Shown: in pieces, positions 18,530 to 43,600 of the stretch
Layout: each line of letters opens with the position of its first letter
Position numbering within the stretch: position 1 is the stretch's first letter
NCBI GenBank assembly: GCA_958009085.1
Contig: OY253672.1
Coordinates: forward strand, 868,001 to 932,000
From: Protoeuglena noctilucae
Lineage: Eukaryota
Direction of reading: 5' to 3'
DNA: 64,000 bases
Notes under the pieces: generated by a model
Seen by the model: only the letters and a program-made list of their open reading frames with translations
What the model was told of the DNA's origin: nothing
The model's database searches: none
Position numbers and translations under genes: made by a program

Positions 18530-21500
18530 TCACTTCTCGATTGCCACCAAGCGCTCCCACACCCGCCTCACAGCCTCCATGTGCCAGCCAGAGTCGAGCA
18601 GCACAGCGCCCAAGAGAGCCTCCACCACGTCTGCCAGAGCCTTGGGCGCCCCAGGCACACTCGGGGGCACCTCAAACGGCACCCCCTCGCCAGCCTCACC
18701 GCCCCTGCCCGCCCCTGCCCCACCCTTGACTGCGCGCGCACTGCCCTTGCATGTCCCTCCACCACCCTTGCCTGCGCCCGCACCACCTGCACCCACGTCC
18801 CCCCCGCTGCCTTCCTTGGCCCCTTGGCTGACCTCCTTTTCTCCCCCTCGCTCGTCACCCCCTGCCCCACTTGCCCCACTCGCACCAGCCCCGTCATTGC
18901 CCACCGATGCGACCGCATCCTCTGCAGAGCCCGACCCTGTGCCGCCTGCCCCGTTCCGCTTCTCTCGCAGCTGCGCCCTCAGGTCCTCCACTTGCACGAT
19001 GCAGTCTCCGATGGCGGCCACCAGAGGGGGGCTGGCGTGGATGAGGTGGCGGTGCAGCCCCGCGACCACGGCGCGGTACGCGAGGTGGTTGTTGTTGACC
19101 TGTGGGACGAGACGCACTTTTCATGTCAAATCGAATGCTTGATCGGCAACTGGTGCACCCAGAAGCAGGTTCTAGTTGCAGCTGCGCTCACCCATGCCAT
19201 GCGCCCCTCCGTCAGCACGCCCTCCCTGGCGTCGGGCATGTCGTCGAGGAGCTTTAAGGTGACGACCCAGTCAAGGGCAGCGTCGCCCTGCGATCGCAGC
19301 AAAGGCTCTTGCTTTGCTCACTCACTGTGGCGCACACCCCAGTGTACACAGCAGCACCCACACAGCAACACCCCCACACCAATGCCCAGCACAGTCCCAG
19401 CAACAGCAAAGTACAGACAGCCCGCAGCACATCCCTTCCACTCCTCACCAGGAACTCCAGTCGCTGGTTGCTGGCCAGCATGGGGTGCGAGCAGTGGGTA
19501 AAGGCGCGGAGGGCGAGGCTGGGGTCCTGGAATCGATACCCAAACCTCTCGCATACCCACTCCACCAGGTCCGCAGCCACCTTGTCCCGCACGGCACTCG
19601 CCGCCATCGCATCGAACTCCGCCTGGTGCTTGAGGACCTCGGGGAAGCCCGGTGGGAACACCAAGCCGCCCTCACCACCCTCGATGCCCTCACTGCCATC
19701 TTCGCCCCCCCCACCCTCCCCGCTCTCACCAACCCCGCCACCCTCGCCACCCTCGCCACCCCGTTGACCCTCGCTCGCCCCCGCCGGCGGCGCGTCCCGC
19801 CGGGTCTCTGCGCCAGCCTCGCCCTGCGCTTCCCACCCCCGTACCAGCGCCACCAGCGTCGCCGTCTCTCCCTCCCGCCCCACCGGCGTCGCACCGTTCT
19901 CCCGCTCCCCCTCAGCCCCAGCCCCCGAGGAGCCGTCTGCCCGCACCTGATCCGCACCTGCCGGCCCCTGCTGTGACGCCCTCTCGAGCGACCACAGGAG
20001 GTGGCGCAGCTGGCCCCCCGCCTCGTTCCCCGCCCCAATCACCTCTCCATCCACCTGTCCACCCACCGCCCCACCCACCGCCGCCGCCGGAGTCTCGCCC
20101 CGTAGAGTCGCCTCGCCCCGGACGAGCGGAGAGGCGAGGACGTCCGCGGCCACCAGGAACGCGAACGCCGCCAGGAGGCCTCCCTGGGTGTAGAACGCCC
20201 CCAGCACCGCCTCAAAGGTGTCCGCGAGCGACTTCAGACGGACCTGGGTGTGCAGGCGCGCCACGCCCGTCTCGGTCGGGTAAAACAACTCCTCCAATTC
20301 CCCAGACCCCACCTCCGGTGGCCCCGGCTCTGGTGCTTTCTCCGCACCCACGCGGGCCCGCTTGGCCGCACCCTCTGCCTCGGGCTGGCCGTCGGAGGCC
20401 GCGCAAGGAGGGTTGCCCTCAGCAGGGCCGCACGGGGCCGGGGTGATGTGGTCTGCCCCGCGTTTCTCGCCACAGCGGGGGCCCTCCGAAGCCCCAGCGG
20501 GCTCCACCCCACCCTCACCGCCCTCACCGCCCTCGCCGCCCATCTCCACATCGACAGCCACGGGAGCGGCATCGCTCGCCTGGGGGCGCAGCTTGCGGCG
20601 CGCAGAGGATGGCTCGGCAGCGCTTGTCTCCTCAGTGCAGGCCTTGGCGCCACCACCACCACCGCCACTGCCAGCGTCGCCGCCACCGCCACCGCCACCA
20701 CCAGCGCCGGCAGCGCTCGTCTTACCCTCGCCGGCGCTGGTGCTAGGGCCGACATCAACGCTGGCAGTACCACCAGCAGCATCAGCAGTGCCCCCGGCAA
20801 AGGCGTCGGCCTTTGCTGGGCCCGGGCCCATCCCTGGCCCTCGCCACGCGTAGCTGTTGTCGTGCTTGAGGGGCTTGACCCACATGAAGTCCTCCAGGCC
20901 CAGGTCCCGGCACCGCCCGGCCAGTGCGTCGTTGCTCACGATGCCGCTCTGCGAGAGACACCGGGAAGTGTGCTGTGAAGCGAGCACGCCAGAAAGCCCG
21001 CATGATGCCCTAGCAGTGCAGTGGTGGGATCAGATGGGCAATCCCCACCACTATAATGCATGAAGCACCGAGCAGACACCCCACGCCACCACAATCCCGG
21101 TCCCGCATTCGCCCCCCATGCAGCGCCCCGCCCCTCTCCTTGGCAGCCGAGAGGATGGCCTCAGACTTGTTCGGCAGGGTGCAGTAGAGCATGCAGGAGA
21201 TCACGAGCTTCAGCAAAGCATCGCCGAGGAACTCCAGGCGCTCCTGGCTGACGTGGGTGTTGGCGTGGCTGAGCGTCAACGCCTCGCGCATCAACGCAGG
21301 GCTGGGCACGACGCCCCCGGGCCGCAGCACCGAGGCGGCGTCCCTGGCGGCGCCGCCGCGAACGAGGAGGTCCGCGAGGGCCCGGCGCGCCTCGCAGGCA
21401 AGGAGGAGGCCCTCGGTGTTGAAGAGCGCACTTGGCAGCGTGCGTGGGAACGAAGGCACGTCCCCCGAGCACAGATCGTCCATCAGCGCAGCGGGCGTCT

Positions 21501-24500
21501 CCATGCCCATCCCGTGCACGCCCCCGCCCCCTCGCGACCGCTGCTGGTTGGCTGGCGGCTGCAGGAGGCTCCGACCGCACTCGCGCACCAGCACCAACGG
21601 GACCCTCGCCGCTTCCTCTGCCGTCAGCTCGTCCAGCTCGCCCGCGCCGTCCTCGAATTTGGAGCGGAAATTATCGAGGAACGTCGGCGGCGGCTCGTCT
21701 GCTGCCTCCCCACCCTCCCCACCCTCTGGCTCAGGGCCGCCAGTGGCCCCCCTCTCTCTGTCGCTCTCGCTGTCACTCTCACCCTCACTGCCCCCTTTCC
21801 TCCGCCTCCTCCCGCGCTTGTGACTCGCTTTCTTGCCGCTCGGATCGTCCCCCGAACTCCCGTCCTTCTCTGCACCCTCCATGGCCTCAGCCACACTGGC
21901 CACGCCGGCGTCACCACCACCTGCCTCCCCAGCCCCTGCCTTGCCAGCACCTGCCTTGCCAGCCCCTGCCTCGCCACCACCTGCCTTGCCGGCAGCCCCC
22001 TCAGCGCCCCCCTCACCGCCCAGCACCGCCTTGGCTTCACCCGCCTTCCCCCGTCCCTTCTTCCTGTCTTCCCCAGCCTCAGCCTTGGCCTTCACCTTCC
22101 ACGTCACATGCGACGCGAGCGTGTGCTGTGAAAGCCCCAGAACTACCGCGATCTTGGCCGGCATGAAGGACACGTAAGCGACGCGGCCCACCAGCGCCTG
22201 AGGTGCGGTTGGGGAGCCCCGCAGCCGCCCGCAGCGGAGGGGCGCCGTGACGACCTCCGCGCCGTCCCGGTGGCTCAGGGCGTGCGCCCGCAGCCGCAGC
22301 GCCCCGGCCGCGAGCTCCGCCGCGCGCGGCCAGTCCGCCGCAGTGTCGAGGGTCAGGGCCGGCGCCGGGCTGCCCGCCGCACGGGCTTGTGTGCCGTCCG
22401 ACCCCACCGCCCACGCCTTCGGGCGCAGCGGGCACAGGCAGTACCACTTGCGCCCCGCGTGGAATAACCGACTCAGGGCTGCAGTGCGTTCCGCGCTCAG
22501 GGGCTCCCCCCCCACCCGCCCCCAATCCTGCCTATCCCCAAACGCCAGCGTTGCCACCCGCTCTGCGTACTCCCGGTTGCGTGCGCCGTCCCTCTCCTGC
22601 CCCGGGGCGCCCAGCGGCGTGAGCAACGCCGCGTGCATGCCCATGCAGGCCGCCAGGCGGGGGTCCCCCGGCGCCAAGGGCCCCGATGTGACGTACTCCA
22701 CACGCACTGCCTCCCGATTGACGTGGAGGAGCGGGACATCGAGGCCGAGCGCCTCCAGGTCCTCGGGAGGCAGGCGTACGGGTAAGAGGAGCCCGGTGGA
22801 CAGCACCGTGCGCCGGTCGATGCCCAGTTGCAGCCGCAGGGCCTCGGTTAGCCTCGCTGAGCCCGGGGCGCCCTTTGCAAAGGGGTCGTCTGCCTGCACC
22901 GGGGCCAGCCGGTACAGGTGCACCTCCCTCGGCAGCTCTGCAGCTACGCCGTCGACCGCCGGGAGCGAACCCTTGGCGACACATGCACCGTCAGCTGCAC
23001 CCGTACCGTCCGCCACGCACTGGCTCCCATCCACCGGGGCAGGGACTCCAGGTATCTGCAGCTGCGGCGCACACGCGTTTTCTTCTGGCCCTATGGGTCG
23101 CAGCACCACACACTCGGGACCGGCGCGGGACACGACCGTGCCAATGATGGGCTTGCCGTCCTTAGTGGCGACGACCACGGGCTTCGGTGCGCGGTAGGAA
23201 GGGATCAGGGCCTGGGGCGAGAGGCTCTTGAGGGAGAGGCCGCCCGTGGCCACGGGGAGGAGCGATTCGTTGAGCTCGCCGGCGTTGTAGAGAGTCTCAA
23301 TGATCTGAAGGACTGCGGGGGTGAAACAGTGTCAGGTGAGGATCTGGCTACAAAAGGGAGGTGCGGATGACATGAGGATGTGGCTGGTACTGCTGGCAGT
23401 GACCAACAAGGCTAAGCTTATCAACAAGGCGAAATGCAACCTCACCGATTGCTGCCTTGGCCTTCCGTTTCGATCGGGTCACGACGGGGCCCTTGACGCA
23501 TCGCGCGAGGGGGTGTGTGCCTGGCGGCATGAGGCAGCTGACGCGCCAGCTCGGCACGTCCTTGTCGCTCTGCCTGACGGCTGCCGGGTCCGTCACGGCC
23601 TCCCCCGTGTCTTTGTCGATCATCTCAATGGCCACGACGGGACGCGGCGAGTGGTGGCTGCGGTAGGGGGCGCGGGGCGCAGGGTCAGATGGTGGGGCGG
23701 ACTCCGGCAGGGCAAGCGGGCACAACGTGGGGTGAGGAAAGCAGGATGGGGCAAACGAGGCGCGTTGCAACACAAAGTGGGGCGAGGGCACAGTCTTGCC
23801 AACTCGCCCACCTCCCCTCCGCACCCCATCACGACCCCCATCGCGCACCTGTCCCGCGGCAGGCTCTCGCAGTACATCCTCAGCCGCATGCCGGCGTCCA
23901 AAGCATCCACCAGACACCCGGTGCGACTGACGAACACCAGCTCCCTCCCATCCACTCCCCTCTCCTCGTCTCCCTCGCTGGTCTCGCTGTCCAACCCCTC
24001 TAAGGGATCCTGCAGCTCCAGCAGCCCCGCCCCGGCACCCAACAGCTCCCTGGCGACCTCCATCATGTCTTCCTCGCTGGTCTGGTAGCCCTGTAGCAGC
24101 TCCCGGAGCTCCGCCCCGGCCGGGCCGGCGGGGACCATCAGCAGCATCTCGCTGTCCCGGGCGCGGGCGCGGCCACGGCGCTGCGGGGAGCGAGGGTGAG
24201 GGTGGGGGTGAGGGTGAGGGTGAGGGTGAGGGTGGGTTTGAGGGTGAAATTAAGATGGAAGGCAAGGTGTGCAGTAACGCATTTGTACGGAAGCATGGCG
24301 AAATGGGATGCATGGGCCTTGTTGTCACCTGCAGGTAGCTTTTGGGCTGCTGCGGGGGGCAGAAGTTGATGACCACGGCGCAGGCGCGGATGTCCAGGCC
24401 CTCCTCTGCCACAGAGGTCGCCACGAGGTGCTTGAGGCGGCCGCTCCAAAAGTCCCGCAAGACCTGCTCCTGCACTTAGCGGGACGAGCGCGTGCCGTGG

Positions 24501-27500
24501 GACACACGCATGCCACCGTGCGGCGCTTCAGAAACACCTCGCCATGCACGCCGGCCGCCAGCTGCAAGCCATCCACTCCCCGCATCGCACAGCCATCCAG
24601 CAGTGCACATACACCGCCAATCATGCAGCACCGCAAAGCAGTGGCAGTGCACAGCCACCGACAGTCATGCACCCGTCGCGTCCCACCACCCCGGCTGCGC
24701 TTCCCCACCTGCTCGACTGCGGTCATCGTGGTGACCTTGTTCTGGGGCAGGCTGAACAGGCGGCCCGTGGGGAGGAAGTCCAGGGAGGGGCAGAGGGAGA
24801 GCAGCCGAGCGAGGGACACGGCCAGAAGTCTGAGCGATACAAACGTGATGCCGGCCCACGAGTTGACACCCAACTCGGAACCCTCGATCCGGGGCTTGTA
24901 GGCCAGCAGCTCGGCGATCAGACTCGCCACCTGCGAGGACGCGGCCGGGAGACTCTCAAACTGCAGTCCAGTGCCGGCTCACTAAGCGCCAGCTGATGAT
25001 AAACCATGCGACCGTGTAACAAGTGCCACCCCAGCCCCCCGCTTGCCTTGCTGGTGACGAGCTCCTTTAACGCATCCTCGCGCGCCACCGCGGCCCGGTC
25101 GAACATCCCCTGCTCCCGCGCAACCTCAATGACCCTGGCCAGGGCCGCGCTCAACGCCATGCGCGCGCGGTTGATCGACCGGACCTCCGTTCGCTCGCCG
25201 TCCGCGGCGTTGGGCTCCGGCCCGGGCTTGCCCTCGCCCGGGATGGGCCTGTCGACGGTCCGTGCCAGGTTCCAAATGTCCCTGGGGTTGACCGCGCCGC
25301 GCTGGAGCGTCGCTGCGAGGCGGGCGAGTGCCGGTGTGGTGTCGGAGCCCGAGAGGGCGGTGAGGTGGGTGAGGAAGTCGGGCGGGAAGTGCGCCAGGAT
25401 CGCCAGGGCCATGAGGACGAGGCTGGTGCGGACGAGACGGTGGGACGGGACGGCCAGGTGGCGTAGGGGGATGGGGAAGGTCTTGAGGAGCGCGCAGTGG
25501 CTGCCGACCACACGGGAGAGGTCGAGGATGACTGCGGGGGAGAGTGGGTGGGTGCTGTGAGTATACAAGTCTGTCTGGGGGCTGCAGTTGCGACGGCGGC
25601 CTGCGACCATGTGATGACTGGGTGCGAGAGGGAGAGACGCGCTGCAAAGGGCTTGCGTGGTGTACAAAGCACCAGGCTTGCAGCGCATGCCTGTCTGTTG
25701 GACGCACGCGTGGCTCACCCCCGCTGCCCTTGAGCCCCGCGAAATTGGACGACAGCAGAGCGTTGGCCTCCGTCATGCCAATCCCGTCTCTGTCAGATAT
25801 CAGGTCGTCAAGCATGGACCGGTCCGCGGTGCCCTCCATCACCTCGTGCATCGCCAGGAGGGCTGGGAGGGGGCCTGCGTGGAGGCTCCACCGAGCGATG
25901 ATGTGGCGGGCAAACGGCGACACTCCACTCACACCCTCTCAGCACAAGCCTCAGAACGCACGCCGTGCCGGTGGCCAGTGCGCATGGGTATTACCGATGC
26001 ACCACCAACGCACCAGTGGGTTCACCAGCACTCCGCCGATGCCTGCGCGCATCGCAGCGGCACGCGCTCACCCGCCTGCTTTAACACCTCGTGCACCTGC
26101 CGCAGCGCCTCCTCGAAAAGCGCCACCGGCGCCGTCGGGGGCTCCAAACTCTCCGCGCTGGGCAGGCCGAGGTGCTCCGGGGGCGCCGCCTCGAGCCCCG
26201 TCACATCGGCAGCGTCGAGCGTGGCATGGGTATCAATGGCCCTCTCCAAGAAGGACTCCAGGCCCTCCCTGCACGCCGCCGTGTACCGCGCGACGGCGTG
26301 CAGGGCCCCCGCCCACCGGCAGAGGCCGAAGGAGAGGGCTGCGAGGTGCCTCCGGACCACCGTGAGCTTCAGAGAGGGCGAGGCGGCCCCTTGGCCCACG
26401 GGGACGCAGCCCATCGCCTTGACCAGCGGCCCCGCGAGTCCCTGCGAAAGGCCAGGAGACGAAGAAGACTCATGGCACGGCACGGTGCAAAGGGCGCGGG
26501 TGTCCTTTGGCTTCTGGGATCTGTAGAGGCGGCACGCGTGCCCGGCGCGGGTTCCAAGCACCGCGAACCACGTGCCTCGAGCTCATTCGTCCAGGAGAGG
26601 ATGGCGCCGCCATCGTAGTTGACGATGCCTGGGGTGGCCATGTGGCTGTGCGCATGCAGGGAGTCGGTGGCGCGGTAGACGGTCGTCAGAGTGCAGCCCA
26701 TCACGGCCTGGAGCTGCAGGAGCGTCTTGTGGCCCTGGGCGGCCGAGCGTGCGGCTTTCTGCGGAGCACAGCGCAGAGGCAGGCGGTGTCCCTCGCGTGC
26801 AGAGAGGCGCGTGCTGCCCTCCGCCCAGGTCGCAAGGGCCGGTGCTCACCATGCCGGGGGACGCCGTCATGCCGAAAATGCGCTTGACGCCCTTCCTGCG
26901 GGCCGCCTCGCACAGCCGCGCGGATGGGTCGTTGCCCATGCAGTGATGCGCCTCGTCGACGATGAGCAGCAGCACGTCCTCCCCGCGAATGAAGTTGGAA
27001 TCGAGCGCGTTCAGCGCCACCTGAGGCGTCATGAACACCGCACCGTGCTGCCTCAGGACCTTGTCCCACTCCTGGGGCGACCAGCGGTCTGCGGGTGCGG
27101 CGGGCGTGGGTTGTTATTCAAGTACAAGGGGGCCACGCGCGACGAGTCCGCAGACCGCCGCGGCCTCACCGATGTGCAGCCCCTCGTGGTTGTCGTTCAG
27201 CCCCAGGCTGGAGGCATAGGACTCCCCGGTCAGGGCCAGCACGGGGACGGGGCACTGCCTCCGCGCGTATAAGGCTTGCTGTCTCACGAGGAACTTGGTA
27301 GGGGCTGCGGGGGGTGACGACGCGGCGAATGAGGCAGCGGCGCCGGCGGGATCGGGCAGAAAGCGCGCTTCGGGACTTGCTCAGGACTTACCGGTGAACA
27401 ACACGACCTGGCGCGGGTCCCGGGCGCTGTGTAGGGCGTCCCGCATGAGCATGAAGGAGATGCACGTCTTCCCGCTGCCTGCATCGTGGGCGCGGGGGGC

Positions 27501-27777
27501 GGGAAATCGGATGCTGCTCCGGTGTGCCCTCCACGCTCGCGCGCTGCGGCCAGGCGTCCGCTTGCATGCACGGATTGCTCTTGACGACCGCAGAAATGGG
27601 CACGGATGTCGAGATCAACGAAGGACCCAGATCGCAGCGCAGGACGGCTGGTCGTGCACGCGCAAGCCCCAACTCACCCGTGGGCAGGAACGCCACGATG
27701 TTTCCATGGCGCGCCCTCTCGAATATTTCCAACTGGTACTCGCGGGGCACTTCATAGGCGTCATCTCGCCCCGTCAT
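18530..27777 (-). CDS. DCL: Dicer-like RNase III (DExH helicase, DUF283, degenerate PAZ, two RNase III domains), multi-exon
   Basis: Helicase: PREYQLEIF..NIVAFLPTGSGKT, LLIVDEAHH, IFGMTAS, LVATSVAEEGLDI..SYLQRRGRAR. DUF283: YCESLPRD..GELNESLLP. RNase IIIa: ERLEFLGD..ADTFEA. RNase IIIb: QRLEFLGD..ADVVEALLGA. Confidence 0.93.
24192..24247 (+). repeat. (TGAGGG)n microsatellite in a Dicer intron
   Basis: About 9 imperfect hexamer units next to the acceptor at 24181-24183. Confidence 0.85.
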
Positions 27778-27872
27778 GCTTGCTGCAGGCCATGGAAGCC
27801 ACAAAACATTGCAGAGCCGTGCTGGCGGGGCCCGGGGACGAGGAAACTCACAATCCACCCCAGATGCAATAG

Positions 27873-30800
27873 TTTTTTTTTTTTTTTGCCAATGAGGATT
27901 CAAAGAGATGACGGCTAGGGTACCCTCAAAACCCTACCCGCTAGAAAACCCGAGTAGAGAGAAGGAGAAGGGGAGGAGAAGGAGAAGAGAGGTGATGGCA
28001 CAAAGGTCAGTAGTAGCCGCCAAGCTAGCATACTCGGAGAACAGACACCCCCCCCCCCCTAGCCCCCCTATCCCGGCTCCAATGGAACACGGCGATTCGG
28101 TGGCGGCTGCGGGGGAGGCAGAGGTGGGAAAGAAGAGAAGAGGTTTTGAGTGACAGAAATGGCCTTGAAGAAGACCCCATGGGGGAGGGAGGGATCGTGG
28201 AGGAGTTGGAGCATAGAGGCCGCAGCTGGAGAGGAGAGGCGGTGGTGGCAGGCCATGGCAGACGAGATCCTGTGGCTGGCGTAGGAGACGATGCGAGCGG
28301 CCCTTGTCCACGCTGGAGCATCGGGAAGGTCAAGGAGTAGCATGGGGGGTGCACCTGGGAGTGGATGGCCCGTGCGCCAGTAGCGGCGCGCGGTGATGAT
28401 GGCGTGGAGAGTCTCAGACCACAGGAGACGCCAAGCGGGGGACCTGAGAAGGTCGGAGCTGGCATGGGTAGCGCCAAACCGGAAGAGGAGCGCGGTGGGA
28501 GTGCCACGGTCAGGGCAGAGGCCGGACGGCCCCACGGGGGGATGAGCAAGGCAGCGGTTGAGGTACTGCCAGGAAAGAGGAGGCAGGGATTGGAAGACGG
28601 AGTGCCACACGACCTGGGCCGTGCGACAGGACTCAGCCAGGTCGTGGAGGGACGTGCCGTGGCGTTCGAGGCAGAGGGGGCAGGGCTTGCCCTGGAGGTC
28701 AGAATAGGTAGGCAACCGGTCGGTGACAGCGAGCCAGGCCATGGAGGCGGTGGCCAGGTGAGCGGGGTTAGCCTGAGGGCGTGCCAGAGCGGCAGTCGCA
28801 GCATGTGCCAGGTGGGGAGAGCTGTCCTCCAACAAACGCTGGCAGGGTTTGTCCGTCGAGTATTTCGCGACCACGAAGGCCCTGTGATGGGCCTGGGGAG
28901 TGATGGATGCCAGGGGATGGTATGTGGGGCCAAGGGAGTGGCCATGCATGGAGAAGTATTGGGACCAACCCTGGGCCCTAAAACCAGAGATGCGGTGGAT
29001 GAAGTCGTGAGGGAAGACAGACAGGACTGTGGGTCCACGGACGTCATTCCAGGCGTTGGCGGGGAGCCCAGGGTGGCCAGGGCTGTTGATGCTGAGGTGG
29101 GCGGAGAGGGCAGAAACGAAGTCAAGACGGATCTGCCTAGCCATATAGGAGCCCAGGGCAGGGACCATGAGGGTCGTCAGTACATCGTCAGGGTCTTTGA
29201 GGCCCAGACGGCCGTTGTGGGCACGAGGGATGATGAGCGACGAGACCAGCGGGAAGGCCCGCTGGAGGGGTTCGAGGATAGGGATGATGGCGGCCCAGAT
29301 TTGTCTGGCCGTGGCATCAAGGAGCAGCCTTTGGTGGGAGGGGTCAGTGGAGCGGCTGTGCACGAAGTTGGCGGGGAAGGAGAGAGGGTTGTGTGGGTTG
29401 AAGAGAAGTGGGGCACGGAGCATTGGAGTCAGGTGGACCCACAGGTCATTCAGGGTGGGTGGGCTGGCGTATGGCTGTGGTGGAGGGAGCAGCTGAGTGG
29501 CGGGGAACATCGAGGTGGCACTGAAAAGGTCACGAATGAGGGGGGTGGGCGTGAGCTCCGCCCAGTCTTTGGCTGTCAGAGCACAAATGTGGGGCCCCAC
29601 CGGGATGGACAGCGTCGTCTCATAGCGCTGTCCGTCACATTTGACCGTCGCTTTGTACTTGAGGGACCTGACGAGGTGTTGGTGGATGGCATTGGAGAAG
29701 AGGGGGTCTGCGCCCGACGCATGGAGCTGGATCATCTTGAAGCGGAGGGCCGCTTGGTGAAAGGGCACGTGCTGGGCCTGAAGGCCGCCCCGGCTGACGG
29801 GGTGGTACAGCTCGTTCCTGTCAATCTCAGGCGGAATCCGTTGTGTCTTGGGGGATTCCGTGAGCACGTAGCGCTGGATGTAGCGTAGGAGCAAGGCACC
29901 CGGCTTCCCTGGCGAGAAGTCCATGGGGCAGTGCGTGGTCGCATAGATGAGGCGTGACAGCACGAACGTTTTGACAATCTTCCACCGATGGAGCAGTGGG
30001 ATATTGTGTGGTCTGAGGCGAAGGAGCTGTGTATAGATGCTTGCCACGAAGGAGGAGTAGTCGGTTGGGACGATCCCAGTGGGTCCCATGAGCGTGCCCA
30101 GGTATTTCACTGGCGCTGCAGGTTCTCCCCCAGGCGGGGTAATCCAGTAGCCATCGAGCATCCAGCGCTGCTGGGCATGGTCATAGACTAGCGAGTCGAG
30201 GCCGTGGGCCTGGGCAGCAGTGAGGTGCTGGTGGAGCGCTGCTGGGTCCGTGTTCCACTTTCCAGCAGGAATGATGCCCGTCTTGGCGGGATTAGAGCGC
30301 AAACCAGTGGCCTGGTGGAAAGTATCCAAGGCCTGGAATAAGTTGTGCATGGATTGCACCGTGGCCTGCACGAACTCGGTGTCGTCTGCAAATTGGCTGA
30401 TGAGGCTCTCCTGGGCGAGCCGCTTATCGGTGCGGAAAGCGTAGAGGGGGGGCTTGTTCGGTCCCGGTACCGGGAGGCCCTTGATGTCGGGGTTGGAGGC
30501 GACCAACTCATGGAGCGCGAGCGCCACAAGGATGAAGAGGGAGGGGGCGAGCGGGCAGCCCTGGCGGACGCCTGTGGAGACATTGTAACCACGGCTGAGG
30601 CCGCGACCCAGCTTGAGCTGGTAGGTGGCTGAGGGGGTGTGCATGATGTCGAACCAGGTGCAGAACGTTTCCCCAAAACGCAGGGTCTCGAGGATGCGTC
30701 TGAGGAAGGGCCGGTCGACCGTGTCAAAGGCCTTGGCGAAGTCATTGAAGATGATGAAGCAGCCCTCGTCTGACTGGTCGAGGAGTTCCAGGGTGGCGCA

Positions 30801-33335
30801 GGTAAGGTACACGCATCGTGAGATGCATCGGCCCTTGATGAAGGCCTGCTGGCTGAGGGGGATGATGCGTTGGAGGACGGGGCGTAGCCGGGAGTTGAGG
30901 ACCTTAGCGAGGACGCGGTAGACCACGTCATTGACTGAGATGGGCCGGAAGTCCGAGGGCTTGCAGTCCGTGGCTTTGGGGAGCTTAGGAATGAGGGTAA
31001 CGGTGCTGTTGAGGAAGCAGGCAGGCATGAAACCCGTCTGATGGATGGTGTTGAGGAGGAGAGTGAGGAGAGGAGCGTAGAGGTGGGCGTAGCGTTGGTA
31101 CAGGCCAGGCGGCAGGCCCATGGGCACCGTGGCGCTGTCAGGCTTGAAAGAGTGGATGGCCGCGAGGACCTCTTCTGTAGTGATGGTGGCATCAATGCTC
31201 TGCTGCTCCTGGTCAGTGAGCGTGCGCCCAGAGTTCTGGAGGACCTCCAGCACGTGGTGCTGAGCAGCTGGATTGCGGGGTCCGGGGCGCCCCACTGTCT
31301 CAAAGTGGTCCACAAGGGTATCCTCGACCAGGGCCGGTTCGGAGAGGAGCTGGCCGTCAGCGTCTCTGACGCTGGTGACTGGCGGGGAGGGCTTATCTCT
31401 GTCAGGCTGGAGGGCATGGGGGAGGGCCGAGGCTGGCACATCAAAGGACCGGGTTTTGTTCTGCCGGTCGAGGTTTGCGAGGGCATGTTGGTAGTAGTCG
31501 AGGATTTGGGACCAGAACGAAGTGGCGTCTTCGCCGTCACGCACTGCTGCAAAGTACTGCTCCCGCAGAAGCCGCAGCTGCTGCTTCCGCTGGTTGATGT
31601 ACTGGGACTGGTGTGCGTACCAGTGTCGGGCAATCTCCTGGATGGCATTGGCTGTCTGCTGAACCCAGCGCTTGGCGGTGCCGGGGGGAGCGGTGGGCCC
31701 GGGGTGGGCCAGGATGGCAGTGGACACAGCAGCCTCCTGCAGAGGCTCGACCTGCTGGCGGATCTCGTCCACAAGGAAGGACGCGTGCGGGTGGATGTTG
31801 GCGGGGTGCCGACGAGAGGTCCGGGGAGTGTCACGCAGGAAAATGTACACGGGCGCATGGTCAGAGAGGGCGATGTTGGCAGGGTGGACGCGAGCGGTGG
31901 CATCAGAGCATTCCGTGCGGAGGGCAACGGGCTGGTCCCGAGGGACGTAGAAACGGTCAAGTCGGTTCTTCCATGACTTGTCATGGGCCATGTCCCGGCG
32001 CGTGGGGACTGCAAATGGCTTGTTGTGGTCCTGCTCCCCGGCATCAATGAGGCCCAGGACGTCGATTTGGGCTTGCAGCTTCTTTCGCAGGGTGGTCTGC
32101 ACCTCAGAGGTGGACTGGTGGTTCGAGGATGAGGCTGCCATGTCGGCTGCGAGGACCATGTTCCAGTCCCCACCCATGAGGACCAGGCCGAGTTCGTGGG
32201 ATGCGAGGCAGTCAGGGAGGAGGGTGGAAAGGACGTAGTCTTTGTCAGCGGCGTCTTGGGGCATGTACACGTTGACGAGGGTGTAGTGACGGCTGGCCAC
32301 TTCGACATCAAGCCGGGCCACGAAGCCAGTGAGGCGGGCAGTGTCAGGTTCGGTCCAGGTGTGGAGGAGGTGGGAGCCAGGCTGGTTGCAAACGAGGATG
32401 GCCACCCCAGCCCGATGGGCTGAGGGCCCCTTGCGCCACACGTGGTGGCTGAGGCGCGCGAGGGACGCAAATGCGGCAGGGGGCTGATCCAGCTCAGTCT
32501 TGAGCTCTTGAAGGAAGACAAAGGCAGCGGGGGGAGCCAGCCATGTGTGGGGGTGTGCCTGGATGAGGCCAAGCAGCGCCTCCTGTTTCATGAGAAAGTT
32601 ACCATTGAGGTTGAGAGTGAGGGCAGTGAGGTTGGCCAGGCCTGGAGAGTGAGGCGGAATCGCCGGAGCCGGCCTTGCGGCCTGAGGTCGTGAGACGTTG
32701 GCCAGCGGTCGTTTAGACCGATTGGGGGCAGGTGCTACGAGCTGCGGCTGAGCTGGAGAGAACCCGGCCTGGAAGGGTTGGCCCTGGTCGCAAGCCCCCA
32801 CGGGTGCGGATGTATCGGAGGAAGGGGCCTGAATACGCAGGCGCTTTGCTGTGCTACGTGTTGTCGCCATTTTTGTACTGCAAGAGGACTGATTCGGCGA
32901 AAGATAGCGGCGCCGTCCGGAGAGAGATAAGGAGAAGAGGCGTTTGTTGTTCGGAAAGCCAGCAGGAGAGCCGAGATAGAGTAGCTAACAACGGAGAGTC
33001 GACGGCAAGAGTTGGAGGTCACAACGAGCAAAGCACTTGCTACCGCGGTGATGTCGTTAGGAGAGGAGCACATCGCTTGAAAAAGACGGGTTGGATTTGC
33101 TGCCGCGGGGAGCAGAGGGGGCGATGACGGCAGAGCGTTGTGGTTGGCCTCAGACGCCGGAGTAGAGGGCCAGACAGGCCAGGAGAGGGGCCCAGAGGCC
33201 AAATTGTATTCGAAAAGCGCAACGAGGCGCGGTGTAGTCAAAAGGCGGGTCCCCGGGGGGTCCCCGGGGGTGGGGAGGGGTACGCGCACGCGAGCCCTCC
33301 CCCCCGCCGCCAGGCCGGACGGCACTACCACGCTC
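27873..33335 (-). mobile_element. L1-clade non-LTR retrotransposon (LINE) with intact APE-RT ORF and poly(A) tail
   Basis: Intronless 1600-aa ORF, about 180 nt of 3' UTR, then A15 (T15 at 27873-27887 on the + strand). The 5' boundary is approximate and no TSD was found. Confidence 0.9.
28068..32870 (-). CDS. LINE ORF2-type polyprotein: AP endonuclease + reverse transcriptase + C-terminal Cys/His motif
   Basis: APE: TLNLNG, FLQE, VNVYMP, GGDWN, RLDRFY, SDH. RT: FRPIS, DFAKAFD, GVRQGCPLAP, QFADD, KYLG. C-terminal CPLC..H....C. Confidence 0.95.
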   Translation of the reverse strand: MATTRSTAKRLRIQAPSSDTSAPVGACDQGQPFQAGFSPAQPQLVAPAPNRSKRPLANVSRPQAARPAPAIPPHSPGLANLTALTLNLNGNFLMKQEALLGLIQAHPHTWLAPPAAFVFLQELKTELDQPPAAFASLARLSHHVWRKGPSAHRAGVAILVCNQPGSHLLHTWTEPDTARLTGFVARLDVEVASRHYTLVNVYMPQDAADKDYVLSTLLPDCLASHELGLVLMGGDWNMVLAADMAASSSNHQSTSEVQTTLRKKLQAQIDVLGLIDAGEQDHNKPFAVPTRRDMAHDKSWKNRLDRFYVPRDQPVALRTECSDATARVHPANIALSDHAPVYIFLRDTPRTSRRHPANIHPHASFLVDEIRQQVEPLQEAAVSTAILAHPGPTAPPGTAKRWVQQTANAIQEIARHWYAHQSQYINQRKQQLRLLREQYFAAVRDGEDATSFWSQILDYYQHALANLDRQNKTRSFDVPASALPHALQPDRDKPSPPVTSVRDADGQLLSEPALVEDTLVDHFETVGRPGPRNPAAQHHVLEVLQNSGRTLTDQEQQSIDATITTEEVLAAIHSFKPDSATVPMGLPPGLYQRYAHLYAPLLTLLLNTIHQTGFMPACFLNSTVTLIPKLPKATDCKPSDFRPISVNDVVYRVLAKVLNSRLRPVLQRIIPLSQQAFIKGRCISRCVYLTCATLELLDQSDEGCFIIFNDFAKAFDTVDRPFLRRILETLRFGETFCTWFDIMHTPSATYQLKLGRGLSRGYNVSTGVRQGCPLAPSLFILVALALHELVASNPDIKGLPVPGPNKPPLYAFRTDKRLAQESLISQFADDTEFVQATVQSMHNLFQALDTFHQATGLRSNPAKTGIIPAGKWNTDPAALHQHLTAAQAHGLDSLVYDHAQQRWMLDGYWITPPGGEPAAPVKYLGTLMGPTGIVPTDYSSFVASIYTQLLRLRPHNIPLLHRWKIVKTFVLSRLIYATTHCPMDFSPGKPGALLLRYIQRYVLTESPKTQRIPPEIDRNELYHPVSRGGLQAQHVPFHQAALRFKMIQLHASGADPLFSNAIHQHLVRSLKYKATVKCDGQRYETTLSIPVGPHICALTAKDWAELTPTPLIRDLFSATSMFPATQLLPPPQPYASPPTLNDLWVHLTPMLRAPLLFNPHNPLSFPANFVHSRSTDPSHQRLLLDATARQIWAAIIPILEPLQRAFPLVSSLIIPRAHNGRLGLKDPDDVLTTLMVPALGSYMARQIRLDFVSALSAHLSINSPGHPGLPANAWNDVRGPTVLSVFPHDFIHRISGFRAQGWSQYFSMHGHSLGPTYHPLASITPQAHHRAFVVAKYSTDKPCQRLLEDSSPHLAHAATAALARPQANPAHLATASMAWLAVTDRLPTYSDLQGKPCPLCLERHGTSLHDLAESCRTAQVVWHSVFQSLPPLSWQYLNRCLAHPPVGPSGLCPDRGTPTALLFRFGATHASSDLLRSPAWRLLWSETLHAIITARRYWRTGHPLPGAPPMLLLDLPDAPAWTRAARIVSYASHRISSAMACHHRLSSPAAASMLQLLHDPSLPHGVFFKAISVTQNLFSSFPPLPPPQPPPNRRVPLEPG

Positions 33336-33884
33336 TTAAAGAGCATGGTTGTGGCCCGCCGGCCTGGTTGGAAGGCCGCGGCTTGCTCACCTGCCGCACT
33401 CGCCACCGCGCATGCACGTAGCTATGCGGCCAGCGTTCCCAAATTCGCCTTCTCCTCTACCTGCAGGACTCGAGACCAATCTCGACATCAACTGTGTTCT
33501 TACTGTGTTCTTCGTCAAGTCAATGCTCTCCGCACCGTGACACGCGATGGCAACTCTTCAGCTCGGTAGGTCAAGAGCACCGAGTGCCAGCGGCACGCAG
33601 ATTTCTGTTGCCTGTAGACCATTGATGTTTCTCCGCGCATCCATCCTGGGCATTTCCACATCTTCAGGCCTCGGATAGTGGCAGGTAAGGCCTTGGCGTG
33701 GTGTCCGTGGCAGGTGCAGCTGGGGCCTCCCTCGGCAGGTGGGTCCCTGCCCCCGATAATGGCCGCGACAACCCCGGCGGCCTGCGAATGTGCATCCACC
33801 CGTCCATCCAAGGTCACAAACCATGTCAGGCACGCCTCCCTGTGACGCATCCGCAGGGCAGCAAGGACATCACCAACCGCCACC

Positions 33885-34784
33885 ATGCGGTCGCTCGCGC
33901 GCCTCAGCCCGATGGCCGTTCGGGCCCCCTGCCAGTCAGCGCAGCAGCGTTTCGGCTCCTCCCTCTCGGTGGCGACGCGGGCGGCGAGTCCGGGCCACGG
34001 TGAGACGACGGGCACTGCAGCACAAAATCATTTCTCACATGGCGCGGCGTCGAAACCCAGCACGCGTTCCCCATGGCGCAGGCGACGGGGGCTCCTCGGA
34101 GAGCGGCTCATTGGAGAGCAGCCAGGAGGGCAAGGCGATGCGCCGCCAGGAGCGCAGCACGCCCCGTCGCCTCGGCCTGCAGAGCCCCGAGGACCTCTTT
34201 CAGCGCGAGCTGGACACAATCCGGTCGGTGCTGGACCTGTGGTCGCGGGGCCCGAGCCCCACGGGTCTGCTGCGGCCATTCGACATCGTCCGCGACCTGG
34301 CGGGCGAGACGGAGCCGTTTGGCGACCTTGGCTCGCTGGCCATGAACATCGCGGAGGACGAGGAGGCGTTCACGGTCACCGCGGATGTGCCCGGGCTCGA
34401 GCGCAAGGACGTCCACGTCCAGCTCCACCCGGACGGCACGCTCGAGCTGTGGGGGGAGCGGCGCACCGAGACCAAGAGAGAGAGTGCCCGCATGCACGTG
34501 CAGGAGAGGCACTTTGGCCGATTCAGGCGAGCCGCGTGGAGGGTATTGCCGCCAGCTGGGCCTGGCACGCGTGGTTTTACCGTGACGTGCTGCGGGGTGA
34601 GTTGATGGGCCTCGTCACCCGCCGTCTCCGCAGCCGGGAAGTGATGCTGCCCAAGGACCGCATCCAGGGCGACAAGATCAAGGCGTTTATGCGCAACGGC
34701 GTACTCACGTTGACGGTGCCCAAGGTCCCTGGGGAGGCGCACCAAGCGCAGGCGAAGGACATCCCCATTGAGGTCGGGGAGTGA
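33885..34784 (+). CDS. HSP20: Small heat-shock protein (HSP20/alpha-crystallin), probably organelle-targeted; 3 exons
   Basis: FTVTADVPGLERKDVHV, ERHFGRFSREVMLP, IKAFMRNGVLTLTVPK and C-terminal IPI. Exon 1 is transit-peptide-like. Confidence 0.92.
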   Translation: MRSLARLSPMAVRAPCQSAQQRFGSSLSVATRAASPGHGETTGTAAQNHFSHGAASKPSTRSPWRRRRGLLGERLIGEQPGGQGDAPPGAQHAPSPRPAEPRGPLSARAGHNPVGAGPVVAGPEPHGSAAAIRHRPRPGGRDGAVWRPWLAGHEHRGGRGGVHGHRGCARARAQGRPRPAPPGRHARAVGGAAHRDQERECPHARAGEALWPIQASRVEGIAASWAWHAWFYRDVLRGELMGLVTRRLRSREVMLPKDRIQGDKIKAFMRNGVLTLTVPKVPGEAHQAQAKDIPIEVGE

Positions 34785-34819: not shown

Positions 34820-34903
34820 AGACATAGAGATGAATTGAATCGTATGTCGCGCCAATCATCGATGAGACATAGAGATGAATTGAATTGTATGCTGTGCCAA
34901 TCA
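34820..34903. repeat. Imperfect tandem duplication, 45-bp period
   Basis: AGACATAGAGATGAATTGAAT(C/T)GTATG....GCCAATCA at 34820 and 34865. Confidence 0.85.
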
Positions 34904-37619: not shown

Positions 37620-40600
37620 ATGCGGTCGGGAGAGAGAGAGGAGGATCGCGACGGCCTGAACGTCCTGGCCGACGCTGCGGCCGTCGGCAATGACTCGGCC
37701 GGGGCCTCGAGGGCCGCTGCGGGAGAGGATGCGGTGAGCGAGGAGGGGTCTCTGTCCGGTGCAGCCGGGGCGCGGGCCCGCCGGAGCGGCACCCGGGGAG
37801 CCCGGCGGGGCGCCATCGTGCCGCCAGACTGAGATGAGCCCGCACGGCCGGTTCGGCCGCCCGGCTTCGCGCGGCAGCGACGGGTGCCGTCGGGTCCTCT
37901 CCGCAGGCGTTCCCAGCGCCGAGCCTGACGGACCTCGTGGAGTACAAGGTCCTCCAGACGGGCGCGGATGTGCTGGAGCTCAAGTACACGAGCCAGGACA
38001 AGCAGGTGCGAGGGACTTGCGGGAGCGCGGCGCTGCTGGGACGCGCGGGTGCGAGTCGGACCGGCGGAGATTACCGGCGCTTGCAGATCAACATTAACGA
38101 GGTGGCGTCCCTGGAGTGGGGCGGGCTCTCGGGGCTAGGGGGCGAGGCGACCATCGTGTGGCGGGGGCAGCGGTTCGTGGACCCCAACCGTTTCGCGAGG
38201 TTCGTGTACCAGGTCAAGCTGAGGGAGCTGAAGCAGCAGATGGCCGGGCGCGAGAGCGGGGGCGACCCGGGCGGGGTGACCGAGGTCAGCCGTGTCAAGG
38301 GCTGGCAGACGGTCAAGGACGCGGTGTCCAAGCAGTCACTGGAGGCGAGTGGTTTGCCGGGGCGAGGGGCGCGCCCATCTCACGATCATCCCCGCCGACG
38401 TGCTACGTGCTCCCGCCCGTCCGTGCTCTGCAGAAGCTGCGGGGAGACCTGAAGCACAAGCTCGCGAGGGAGCTGGCGACCCCCGCCAAGTCGACCGGGG
38501 GCGCCAAGTCCCGCGGCCGGTCTCCGGCTACGCGGGCCCAGGACGAGGAGGAGGAAGCACCCACGTGGACACTGACGGGTGCGGGCGGGGCGGTCAACCC
38601 GCCTGCGCATCCACGGCCCGCTGGGGCTGGGGTTTCTGATCGCCCTTGGTTTACGTGCGGACGCAGGGACCGACGTGAGAGAGGACCCCATCCTGAGGCG
38701 GCTGCTATGCGCACATGACGGGTGCACGAGCGTGGCCAAGTTTGGCGCAGATGGGGGGCCCCCACGGCACTGCGCGGCGCACCGGGGCGACGGGAACGTC
38801 TTGTCGGACTCGCAGCTGTGCAGCGAGGGCGACTGCCTGGCCGTGGCGCTGTGGGGAGCGCCGGGAGGGCCGGCGACGTGCTGCAGGGCGCACCGGCGAG
38901 AGGACATGGTCCTAGCGTCGGACCGGCTCTGCGCGCGGGACGGCTGCAAGCGGCCCGCCACGCACGGGGACGCCGGCGACGTGCCGCAGCACTGCGCGGA
39001 GCACGGGTGGATGGCGGGCGGGGTGGAGGTGACGCTGCCCCTGGCCGAGGCTTCGGGGGAGAGCAAGGCGTGCGGCTGCGACGGCTGCGATAACCTGGCG
39101 ACAGTGGGAAGGCCGGGAGTGGGCCGGGAGCGCTGCGAGCTCCACATGGAAGAGGGCATGCTGAGTTGGTGCTCGTACGCGGCCTGCCCGCGGATGGCGG
39201 AGGGCATGCCGCCCATTTGCCGTCTGCACTGGGTCCAGCAGGAGCGCTGGTTCCCCGAGGACGGCTCGGATGGGGAGGAGAAGGCGGGAGGTGAGACCGC
39301 AGAGGGGTTCATAACGGACGACGCAATGTGCGTCTGGAAAGCGAGATTCGCCGCCCCGTGGGACCGAAAGCGGGCATGTGATTGCTATCACGCTTACTCA
39401 TAGACCACTAGAAATGAATGGATAGATGCCGGGGCCCGTCCGTCGCAAGCTGTGTGTGGTGCTGTGCGCCATTACTGTGCTTCGGGCTCCCGCGCGCACT
39501 CGCTCGCTCGCTGGCATCTAGCGGCCCCGCGGTTCCCGCAGATGCTGGCGATGGTCAGGAGGAGGAGGTTACCGGCGGGGCGGAGGCCGCGGAGGAGGCG
39601 CGGCCGGGGGAGGCGGCGGAGTCGCAAGGAGCGTGGCTGGGACCCATCGCGGTTTCGCGCAACAGCATCCGGAACCCGAATCTTAAGATGAAGTACACGA
39701 TGCCAGCGCGGGGAGAGCAGTTTATGGCGATCCAGGCCGCGGTGCGGAAGGCCCTGCACAAGCCGGCCAGCTACCGCGTGACGAGTCCGTCGTTCACGGT
39801 CGGCCACAGCCTCCGCTGGAGCCCCGCGGAGCTCAAGAAGCACGCCACGGAGGTGCTGTCGAGCAGCCCGGACGTCAAAGCCGCGTTCGAGACACTTTAC
39901 GCGGCCTGCAAAGGAGGCATCGAGGACGCCATCAAGGCGGCCCTGGGCGGGTGAGTGGCAGCCGTGCAGGGACACAAGTGGGTCGCAGCGACGACGTTGG
40001 TGGGGACCCGTCCCTCACCAGGCGCTGGAGATGCGCCACAGCGCTCTTTTGTGATTTGTGTGTTGATGTGTCTGGACTCCCTCTCGCAGATGGGAGGCTG
40101 CGGTGAAGAGGTCGCTGGTGGAGGCGGCGCAGACGCACAAGCCCGTCCTGGTGGGCGCGCGGTGTGATGAGGGGAACTGCACGCGCCCTCCGAGGTATGG
40201 GGCCGAGGGCCAGCTGCCGACGCGATGCGTGCTGCACAAGCAGCCGGGGCAGGTGGAGCTGAGGGGCAGGTGCGCAGAGCCGGGGACCTGGCCCACCTGC
40301 GGGGAGTCCCCCTGCACGAGACGGGCCACGTTCAACAAGCCTGGGGTGCTGCCGCCCGTCGCCTGCGCGCTGCACAAGACAGCCGGCATGGAGCTCGTGG
40401 TCCGGCTGAGCAAGGCCCCGAGGTGCGGATACGGCGACTGGCGAGCAATCTGCGCGCCGGGCGGGAGCTGGGCAGACGGGCATGCACATGCCTGGCAAGA
40501 GACACGATTGCACCAGACAGTACACAGCAGCTTCCTCTCTGTCTTGCCCGCAGCTCTGCGCCGCGCGCGGGGGCGTCTGCTGCGCACGCAGGCGCGAAGG

Positions 40601-43600
40601 GACCGAAGGTGGAGGTGCGGGGTGGCTTGGCTGCGGTGGGCCAGCCCGCGCCCCAGGCCCTGGCGCCTGCCGTCGCTGACGTGGCGATGGCGGAGGGGGA
40701 CGCCGTAGACCGCGCGGGCGCAGCCGCGGCTGGGGTTGCAGGCGGCGATGGTCAGGCGGTGGCGGTGGCGCCATTCCCGGTCGCACCGGGGGCGGCTCTG
40801 GGGCCGGCGCTGGGCAAACGGCCGGCGGAGGGCAACGCGGCGGACGAGGCGGAGAGGAAGAGAGCGCGGAGCGCGACACAGTTCGACCTGCCGGACACCG
40901 CGCTGGCGGCCGGCGCGCCCGGGCCGGACGCGCCCGCGCAGGAGGAGCGGGCGGAGCTGGGGGCGGCTCCCAAGCTGCCCGCGCCCACGCGTATGCAGAC
41001 GCGGGGCCGCCACGTGGTCATCCCCGGGGTGAAGCGGGTCGAGAAGGTGGACACGGAGGCGGGGGTGGGCCCGCTGCAGAGAGGGCCGCTGCCAGGCGGG
41101 GCTGGCCAGGGCGCCACGCCTGGGGTGGACCCGGGGGTGCCTGTGCCCATCGCGCCCCTCGCCCCCAACGCGCGGCCCGTGCTGCCGATCGGCGGGGAAG
41201 GTGAGGCCGCGCGTACAGGCTTCGCGGCTTTGGCATAGTTCTGTTGTCCTGAGCCACGCCGACCACGCCTTAGGTCACTGTCGAGAACGCATGAAGCTGC
41301 ACCTCAAGACCTGGTGCTCGTTCGCCCTTTGCCTGCAGGGTTCGTGGTGGGGATGGAAGCGGACGACGACGAGGACTTTGGTGACGGCAGGGCCGTGCCG
41401 GTGGTCCCTCGCCCTCCGGCCTACACGCTCAGTGAGTGTCATTGCCAGGCTGGGACGCGTCTTCGCATCGGCGATGCCTGGGCCGTGTTGCGATCGCGTA
41501 ATTCTGATTCTTTCGTGGCTAGTGGCGCTGGCCATGTCGCCGACGAAGGGTGAAAGGGAGGGAGGGCTTGCACACGTGCCGAGGGAAGGGACCTTACAAC
41601 CTGATGCGCTCTCACCACCTCATAACTCGTCGACCCCTCGCCACCCCCGCAGTGCGCAACGACGAGACGGGCAAGCCCATCGAGAACATCAACGAGATCA
41701 TCAAGCTCGTCACCATGCAGATGCCCCACCGCAACGTCCTCGGGAACGACGAGGAGCGGCAGGCCGCAGATCGTGCTCTGGACAAGGCCATTGCATTCCT
41801 CGTGTCGCTCCTCGTCGGATACGTCCTCAACTCGGTGGTGAGCGCTCGGGCCGCCCCGCAGCTGATTTGAAGCACACCTGTGCGCGTCATGTGTCTCGCA
41901 CCCTTGTCAAATGCCTTGTGGCCCACACCGCCTGCATGGCAGTGGCCCACACCACCTGCATGGCAATGGCCCCGGACACGGCAAGGTGGCTGGGAGTAGT
42001 ACCTTTGCCGCAGTAAAGCACTTTCTGACTCTTTGTTCTCGCCTGTCGCCCCCCGCAGTACCCCAGCGGGCTCGTGTGGAAGAGCCTCCCGACCGTGCTG
42101 CGGCGGCGGGTGTCGACGTTCCTGCAGGGCCTGCCCGAGGTGCTCACGCGCGAGGCCAAGTCCACCCGCAAGATCGAGCAGTCGAAGCCGGAGATGTTCG
42201 ACGCCGCCATGGACATGCTGGGTCTGCCGTCCTGGGAGCGCATGGTGGACATCCTGACCGACACGCAGCAGCGGGGGCGCGCGCGGCGCAACCTTCTCTC
42301 CATCTTCAACGGCTGGAAGGACGAGCTGGAGCGGCAGGGGCAGATGCGGGGGGTGTTCGAGTCGAGGGTGAGGGAGGTCGTGCACCGACTGGTCACCACC
42401 ATCGCCGAGCAGGCCAAGAGGTCCTACGCCAACTCCCCGGGGCACTACGCCGCCACCATGAGGCTCCTGGCCTCCACGGCCGCCTCGCAGGCGCCCCCGC
42501 CCAAGGCCAGCCGGGCGGGTGAGTCGAGGGCTGTGAGGATGAGGACGTCCCACAACACAGGCAGGCTGGTTGTGATGCGGGGTTCGTTTCAATTCGATCG
42601 TTGCGCAAACTAAGCAGTGGGGCAGGCGCACCTCCTCGCGACAGCACGTGTGCTAACAGTATGTTGGCGCTTTTATGCTCTCCTGCCGCAGGGGGCCGAG
42701 CGCCCAGGGAGGCCCGCAGCAACCGCGCCGCGCGCTCGACCACCCCGACGGCCGCCCGCGGAGGCGCCAACGGATCCCGGCGCCGCGCCTCGTCCCCGGC
42801 CAAGGACCCAGCCCCAGCCGAGCCGCACGAGGGCCCCCCCGCGGCCGGGTTCAGCGACGCCTGGCAGCCGCAGTTCCTCGACGCCATCGCCACCATGCCC
42901 ATGCCGGGCTTCCCGGGTGCCCCGCGCATCGACGCCACCTTCCCGCCCTTCCCGCTGACCTTCCCCCGCCAGCCGCCGCCCGGGCTCGGCATGCCGCCCC
43001 GGCCCTGGGGCCCGCCGCCCCACTGGCCTGGTGCCCCTTGGATGCCTTTCGGCATAGGCCCTTTCGTGTCCACTGAGCCCATCGGCCTGCGCCGCAATAC
43101 CCTAGACGACCTCGCCCACGTGGCCAGCCAGGACGTGTCAGAGTCTCCCATGGAGGCGAAGAAGGCGCTGCGGAACGCGCCGGCCTCCGCGCCCGTCGGG
43201 ATGGGCCACGGCATGGCAGTGGTGAGTGCGGTGTGAGAGAAGGGTCGTAGACGTGGGGGGTCTGTCAAGGGTTCTGGATGCTCGGGCAGGCACTGCAGGG
43301 GTTCTGTTTATGTCGAGGCATGCGCTGGTGCGGAGATGGTGCTGCAGGGGCGGTGCAGCAGGGGCCTGTTAAGGTGCCGGGCTTGGTTTCTGAGCTGTTG
43401 ATTCGACGGTGGTCCATTGATGGTTCATTACGCCTTAACGACTTTTAGTCACCTCTCTGCGTCTCGCTCACCACGTCAGCCACCTCTGTGCGCGTTGCTT
43501 ACCACGACTGAACACAGAAATCTCCGCCGTCCCCACAGGGTGTCGGGCCGAGGGACGTATGGGCAGGGACGGACGACATGACCCCATGGCGCATCGGGGA

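Follow-up and report, generated by a model that had tools for sequence, protein, structure and literature searches.

We report that the 64,000-nucleotide (64-kb) stretch of Protoeuglena noctilucae DNA analysed here (contig OY253672.1, positions 868,001 to 932,000 of the forward strand; hereafter the window) contains a coding-competent, L1-like long interspersed nuclear element (LINE) immediately upstream of what reads as an intact Dicer-like gene of this marine chlorophyte, one in which a PAZ domain is not detectable. An initial annotation had placed the end of an A15 tail at 27873 and the Dicer ATG at 27777 on the minus strand, with the LINE upstream of Dicer, in the same orientation and able to code for protein. 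Direct reading bears out both positions, which leave a 95-nt spacer, and the second statement holds as well, the LINE carrying a 1600-codon open reading frame (ORF) with both of its domains. We regard the arrangement as an ordinary transposon insertion in a notable, probably coincidental place. A possible explanation for it, and the one that we favor, although tentatively, is that the LINE sits in an intron of the Dicer 5' untranslated region (5'UTR), that Dicer has kept its own promoter and that the LINE plays no regulatory role; the intron, the position of the promoter and the lack of a regulatory role are each things that we infer.

The coding capacity of the LINE resides in a single ORF (Table 1). 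Given the stop frequency of the window (0.0165 per codon), 1600 open codons would arise by chance with a probability of ~3e-12, and for this reason we consider the ORF to be real and unbroken. Pfam profiles identify an endonuclease (Exo_endo_phos, PF03372, E 7.4e-8, profile positions 1-225 of 225) and a reverse transcriptase (RT; RVT_1, PF00078, E 4.9e-24), and the motifs LNLNGN, LQE, GGDWN, RLDRFY, SDH, DFAKAFD and QFADD were all found. We take the catalytic roles of these motifs to be those of L1 ORF2p, an assignment helped by alignments. The initial annotation had described an intact ORF2 with its catalytic motifs; the endonuclease and RT motifs were indeed located in an unbroken frame, but there is one ORF rather than an ORF1 plus an ORF2. 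No convincing ORF1 was seen upstream of the endonuclease-RT ORF in the 465-nt leader, which was read by eye with no family scan being run there. Single-ORF L1-like elements exist, so a missing ORF1 is not disqualifying. The C-terminal Cys/His motif may be a zinc knuckle of the zf-RVT type, the match to that profile (E 0.18) being not significant.

Comparison with other proteins places the element among L1-type LINEs. Ten sequences of solved structures matched the ORF at E <= 0.001, five of them human LINE-1 ORF2p entries and five R2-type proteins, and the best was human LINE-1 ORF2p 8uw3_A (E 6.1e-31; query residues 490-816 against 384-704). In a large protein collection 326 matches at E <= 0.001 were obtained among 8000 scored candidates; among the matches listed (the best 120 of the 326), the nearest proteins were 27-37% identical to the LINE ORF, and many combined PF03372, PF00078 and PF13966, which is the plant-type L1 set. 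BLASTP against two metagenomic relatives gave 30-32% identity in the RT, including QFADD, and aligned the endonuclease in parts, while the LINE protein had no match in the viral contig and genome contig collections. The element is, then, an L1-like (APE-type), coding-competent and complete-looking LINE, and the identity of at most 37% to any protein among the matches listed suggests that it belongs to a previously undescribed L1-like family. With L1-clade LINEs (human LINE-1 ORF2p, plant and green-algal L1) it shares the N-terminal APE endonuclease, an RT with FADD and a poly(A) tail; unlike its L1 relatives, to the nearest of which, among the matches listed, it is only distantly similar, it has a single ORF without ORF1, a long C-terminal part of ~600 residues and no target-site duplication. 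L1 LINEs are described as common in chlorophytes (PMC8226300).

The two ends of the LINE are defined to different degrees. The 3' end is sharp, with the A15 tail abutting unique sequence. For the 5' end, which the initial annotation had set at 33335, the sole independent mark is the GC skew, which is strongly positive on the plus strand from ~28,100 to ~33,300 and flips at ~33,300; this agrees with the proposed end but leaves it approximate. Three attempts to find a target-site duplication yielded nothing above chance, the best matches of the post-tail flank within 32871-34300 being 8 nt long with a score of 16 (shuffles: mean 15.2, maximum 23). Because no target-site duplication was found, neither the exact insertion point nor the 5' end is fixed. 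A G/C palindrome, CCCCGGGGACCCCCCGGGG, stands at the start of the LINE leader (33240-33300, minus strand), just inside the putative 5' end. The LINE matched only itself in the window, with no second copy or fragment, and scans of 68, 72 and 76 ORFs found no other ORF with an RT or transposase domain there.

The lack of a target-site duplication, together with an assembly junction that is taken as given, could be indicative of an assembly artefact or of an insertion present in one haplotype only. We think this very improbable. Composition shifts sharply at both LINE ends, the tail runs directly into unique sequence, and at least half of the sampled words of 26500-34600 were present in seven sequencing runs, six of which had shares of 0.80-0.82. 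Near-identical sequence of the stretch occurs in runs of three studies, including environmental ones, and some of the runs bear the label marine metagenome, although word shares of this kind do not show the junction itself or a habitat. In RNA run X9 the share of sampled words present was 0.14, a figure that does not show expression.

Several lines of evidence identify the gene downstream of the LINE. Exons 1-4 (read by eye and checked by script) are joined by three GT-AG introns of 199, 87 and 81 nt and, when spliced, encode a 187-residue Dicer-type helicase N-terminus with TGSGKT, DEAH and TASP. This N-terminus aligned to all 11 of the helicase/Dicer homologues compared at E <= 1e-16, with 31-41% identity over 130-217 residues in nine of them. 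In four of the 11, Dicer residues 2-12 meet homologue residues 7-15, and the other seven either extend further at the N-terminus or start later; since the N-terminus lines up with homologue N-termini, no upstream coding exon is expected. Farther along, a fungal Dicer aligned collinearly in tblastn from 27089 to 18587, and a single fungal Dicer was the only match when the Helicase_C exon was compared with longer proteins. RNase III is represented by four collinear partial PF00636 matches (E 1e-5 to 6e-5), each of which is below the Pfam cut-off because introns split both domains, and both RNase III signatures are intact, with ERLEFLGDA and D..EA..GA visible. A very long insert separates the two halves of RNase IIIa. 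When 76 minus-strand ORFs (45 aa or longer) from 16,500 to 27,950 were scanned, no PAZ, Dicer dimerisation (DUF283) or double-stranded RNA-binding domain was detected in the gene at E <= 0.05, although short exons could hide them. The designation Dicer-like is appropriate for this gene. The gene is free of the decay expected of a long-dead gene, but a young insertion would leave none either.

Close relatives of the gene were sought in contig and protein collections. A 27-nt pattern from exon 1 had no match in metagenome contigs or genome contigs, and the exon 4 protein found 11 loci in metagenome contigs, all at most 47% identical, so that no close relative was among them. When exon 4 was compared with representative proteins, a single near-identical match was obtained (P0247, 98%, 151 aa); this is a genomic ORF, unspliced and located on one contig of 4417 bp, and does not constitute transcript evidence.

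How the LINE relates to Dicer expression depends on the sequence that joins them. The initial annotation had noted that the frame is open from the 3' end of the LINE through the A-run into Dicer exon 1. The frame of the Dicer ATG is open upstream only to 27933 (stop codon at 27936-27934, no in-frame upstream ATG), it is not the frame of the LINE ORF, since 5093 mod 3 = 2, and 45% of the 1709 ATGs in the window are likewise preceded by at least 52 open codons. For the latter reason we regard the open frame as a chance feature that is uninformative. This bears directly on the idea, one of two raised in the initial annotation, that the LINE promoter gives rise to Dicer mRNA because transcription continues beyond a weak LINE 3' end (read-through), such that Dicer would rise with LINE transcription and exert negative feedback. 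The shared orientation of the LINE and Dicer is compatible with read-through, as is the fact that AATAAA, ATTAAA and TGTAA occur nowhere on the LINE sense strand, and there is precedent for retrotransposon-linked control of Dicer in mouse Dicer-O and Arabidopsis DCL4 (sources cited below). On the other hand, a read-through RNA would bear the 1600-codon ORF and two upstream ATGs (uATGs) ahead of the Dicer ATG, so that little Dicer protein would be expected from it under the scanning model, and the LINE has no donor motif for splicing to the acceptor-like motif at 27783. With a 1600-codon ORF preceding the Dicer ATG and an open frame that is due to chance, read-through is mechanistically weak and in our judgment quite improbable; a feedback loop between LINE and Dicer would be hypothetical.

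We favor instead, with the reserve expressed above, a scenario not considered in the initial annotation, in which Dicer transcription starts beyond the LINE. A young, coding-competent L1-like LINE would have inserted by ordinary retrotransposition into the ~645-nt intergenic region between Dicer and a divergent small heat-shock (HSP20) gene, in sense orientation and between the likely upstream Dicer promoter and the Dicer start codon. It would have landed in a short 5'UTR intron with its donor at 33391|33390 and its acceptor at 27783|27782, and the LINE would be spliced out with this host intron, as would the two out-of-frame uATGs of the spacer (27809, 11 codons; 27793, 10 codons). The promoter would stay attached to Dicer because the LINE is, as we propose, intronic, and with this promoter still driving Dicer the insertion would have been tolerated. 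That the LINE is next to Dicer would then be coincidental, a matter of the sites at which insertions can persist when genes are densely packed, and not a regulatory device.

Consistent with this scenario, we found that: (i) GGT[AG]AG occurs exactly once on the minus strand between 33950 and 27700, at 33391|33390, 55 nt upstream of the LINE 5' end; (ii) the candidate acceptor, 5 nt before the Dicer ATG, shares the GCAG| form with the acceptors of introns 1-3; (iii) the candidate intron, now 5608 nt long, would measure ~145 nt without the LINE, compared with 81-199 nt for introns 1-3; (iv) the LINE sense strand has none of the signals that might trap a transcript (GGTRAG, TGTAA, AATAAA and ATTAAA are all missing, including from the last 60 nt before the tail) and (v) exons 1-4 of Dicer can be joined cleanly, with neither RNase III signature disrupted. 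From window-wide motif rates, a donor/acceptor pair of this kind would occur by chance at ~0.02 jointly.

A number of observations weigh against this scenario. The joint chance is optimistic, because the motifs were chosen after they had been seen, and the sense strand of the LINE is poor in G (GC skew ~0.3), so that fewer GGTGAG motifs are to be expected on this ground alone. An intron of 5.6 kb is far outside the 81-199 nt of its neighbors and may be removed inefficiently. In the presumed first exon there is a uATG at 33414 which, if transcription starts upstream of it, opens a 14-codon upstream ORF that overlaps the main ATG. In addition, the failure to find a target-site duplication means that the insertion point and 5' end used in the scenario are unfixed, and the proposed intron is a prediction from sequence motifs.

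It is also possible that the 95-nt spacer contains both the core promoter and the transcription start of Dicer and that the LINE has displaced a distal promoter only, leaving expression the same or mildly changed. The spacer and the adjoining LINE end have the lowest GC content nearby (51-54% compared with ~65%), the Dicer start codon is backed by homologues, and compact algal genomes commonly have short leaders. Although this alternative is simple, we find it somewhat less likely. The uATGs at 27809 and 27793 would be a handicap to all leaders of more than 16 nt, the core promoter serving such a start would have been disrupted by an insertion at about -45, and the donor/acceptor pair would be left unexplained.

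A further alternative, the other one raised in the initial annotation, is that the insertion severed Dicer from its promoter, creating a hypomorphic or silent allele, with the weakened RNA interference (RNAi) benefiting the LINE. The LINE does leave just 95 nt of the original intergenic sequence next to the ATG, with the remainder lying beyond it, and its pure A15 tail and intact ORF suggest a young insertion; because the insertion looks young, an intact Dicer ORF is no proof of function. We nonetheless consider loss of the promoter unlikely, as Dicer bears no signs of decay, a near-identical stretch turns up in the runs of three studies mentioned above (with the junction not being shown thereby), the benefit to the LINE is hypothetical, and no other LINE copy was seen in the window.

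Another scenario, which we judge about as improbable as read-through, accepts that the LINE lies, in sense orientation and downstream of the Dicer promoter, in the transcribed 5' leader of Dicer and gives it a role. Each Dicer pre-mRNA would at once be a LINE RNA of full length, and Dicer output would be gated by how the LINE is spliced or packaged in chromatin. If this were true, coupling would run both ways, with the host promoter feeding the LINE and silencing of the LINE throttling Dicer, a logic comparable to that of the methylation-sensing DCL4 promoters of Arabidopsis, with the difference that a LINE would be the component and a unicellular marine alga the host.

Precedent for transposon-related sequences influencing Dicer genes comes from other systems. 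In mouse oocytes, an intronic retrotransposon supplies the promoter for Dicer-O, a Dicer without the N-terminal helicase domain (Flemr et al. 2013; PMC4335007). The situation described here is similar in that a retrotransposon is found toward the 5' end of a Dicer gene, where it could influence the transcripts, and it differs in that the LINE precedes the first coding exon, with no chimeric transcript known. The mouse element is reportedly of the long terminal repeat (LTR) type. In Arabidopsis, promoter methylation dependent on RNA-directed DNA methylation was shown experimentally to set the transcription start and isoform of DCL4 (Pumplin et al. 2016, in PMC10827316); there, sequence upstream of the gene links the status of silencing to the form of the Dicer product, a coupling that in the alga would be hypothetical. 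Within the green algae, Chlamydomonas DCL1 has been implicated in transposon silencing and is flanked by a divergently transcribed AGO1 (PMC10226591), and DCL1/2 are reported to lack PAZ (PMC7676726). The gene in the window resembles DCL1 in being a green-algal Dicer-like gene with a divergent neighbor, which is HSP20 here and AGO1 in Chlamydomonas; an Argonaute gene was considered for this position and rejected.

RNAi is almost unstudied in the lineage of this alga and, if the LINE alters Dicer expression, the locus would offer an example from nature of a transposon influencing the very gene that silences transposons. The present analysis documents what appear to be an undescribed L1-like family and an intact Dicer-like gene without detectable PAZ, as well as a specific predicted splice junction, from 33391 to 27782. 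The features on which these statements are based are collected in Table 1.

Table 1. Features of the LINE, the Dicer-like gene and the sequence around them (positions are those of the window)
Feature	Position	Strand	Basis or remark
L1-like non-LTR retrotransposon	27873..33335	-	ORF, tail and GC-skew block; 3' end exact, 5' end approximate
LINE 5'UTR, ~465 nt, without ORF1-like protein	32871..33335	-	sequence reading
LINE ORF, single, 1600 aa, stop codon included	28068..32870	-	ATG-initiated, unbroken
APE-type endonuclease domain, residues 84-338	31857..32621	-	PF03372
Reverse transcriptase domain, residues 631-868	30267..30980	-	PF00078; alignments to relatives
QFADD motif of RT	30372-30395	-	motif search
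C-terminal Cys/His motif (CPLC...H...C), possibly zf-RVT-like zinc knuckle	28626..28682	-	zf-RVT E 0.18
LINE 3'UTR, ~180 nt, CT-rich	27888..28067	-	without AATAAA, ATTAAA, TGTAA
A15 tail, uninterrupted	27873..27887	-	read directly
Spacer, 95 nt, tail to Dicer ATG	27778..27872	-	read directly
Splice-donor-like G|GTGAGC, preceded by GCA	33385..33391	-	intron would start at 33390
Splice-acceptor-like CCTGCAG|	27783..27789	-	predicted exon start 27782, 5 nt ahead of ATG
Dicer-like gene	18530..27777	-	ATG 27777-27775, stop codon 18532-18530
Dicer exons 1-4	27777-27678, 27478-27392, 27304-27170, 27088-26850	-	by-eye reading, script-checked
Dicer Helicase_C	near 24475-24320	-	Pfam E 4.9e-11
Dicer RNase IIIa	near 21240 and 20250	-	partial PF00636 matches
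Dicer RNase IIIb	near 19290 and 18600	-	partial PF00636 matches
Small heat-shock (HSP20) gene, divergent	33886..34784	+	start at 33886 or 34039

The HSP20 gene, whose start codon would have been ~645 nt from that of Dicer before the insertion, is recognized by Pfam HSP20 matches on two exon frames (E 4e-8 and 1.5e-5). We considered that its proximity might make the LINE heat-inducible but dropped the idea, as no heat-shock element reaching 8/9 core positions was found between the LINE and the HSP20 gene; two were present in the whole window. The HSP20 gene seems to contain an intron (34527-34633, plus strand), the best-fitting donor of which is a GC donor (TTCAG|GCGAGC) that yields the usual G-F-S-R...LP small-HSP motif; a second possibility is a GT donor in the same frame, 9 nt farther along. 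The 3'UTR of the same gene (34820-34890, plus strand) contains a direct repeat of ~28 nt, ...GACATAGAGATGAATTGAAT..., in two copies ~36 nt apart.

The other genes in the window, which has a GC content of ~65%, are ordinary and comprise an ARC5-type dynamin, WD40, Maf1, RPN2, an Rce1-like protease and two genes with the EsV-1-7 cysteine motif. The dynamin, of the ARC5/DRP5B type associated with plastid division, is located at 13165-14799 on the minus strand, ~4 kb downstream of the Dicer gene. Among named relatives the best, with 75% identity over 22% of the stop-to-stop query, comes from Chloropicon primus, a marine green alga, and its best unnamed, metagenomic relative is 88% identical. The EsV-1-7 repeats (PF19114) occur in ORFs at 38576-39400 and 40067-40705 on the plus strand (E 4e-22 and 4e-16, respectively) and belong to a family found mainly in brown algae and their viruses.

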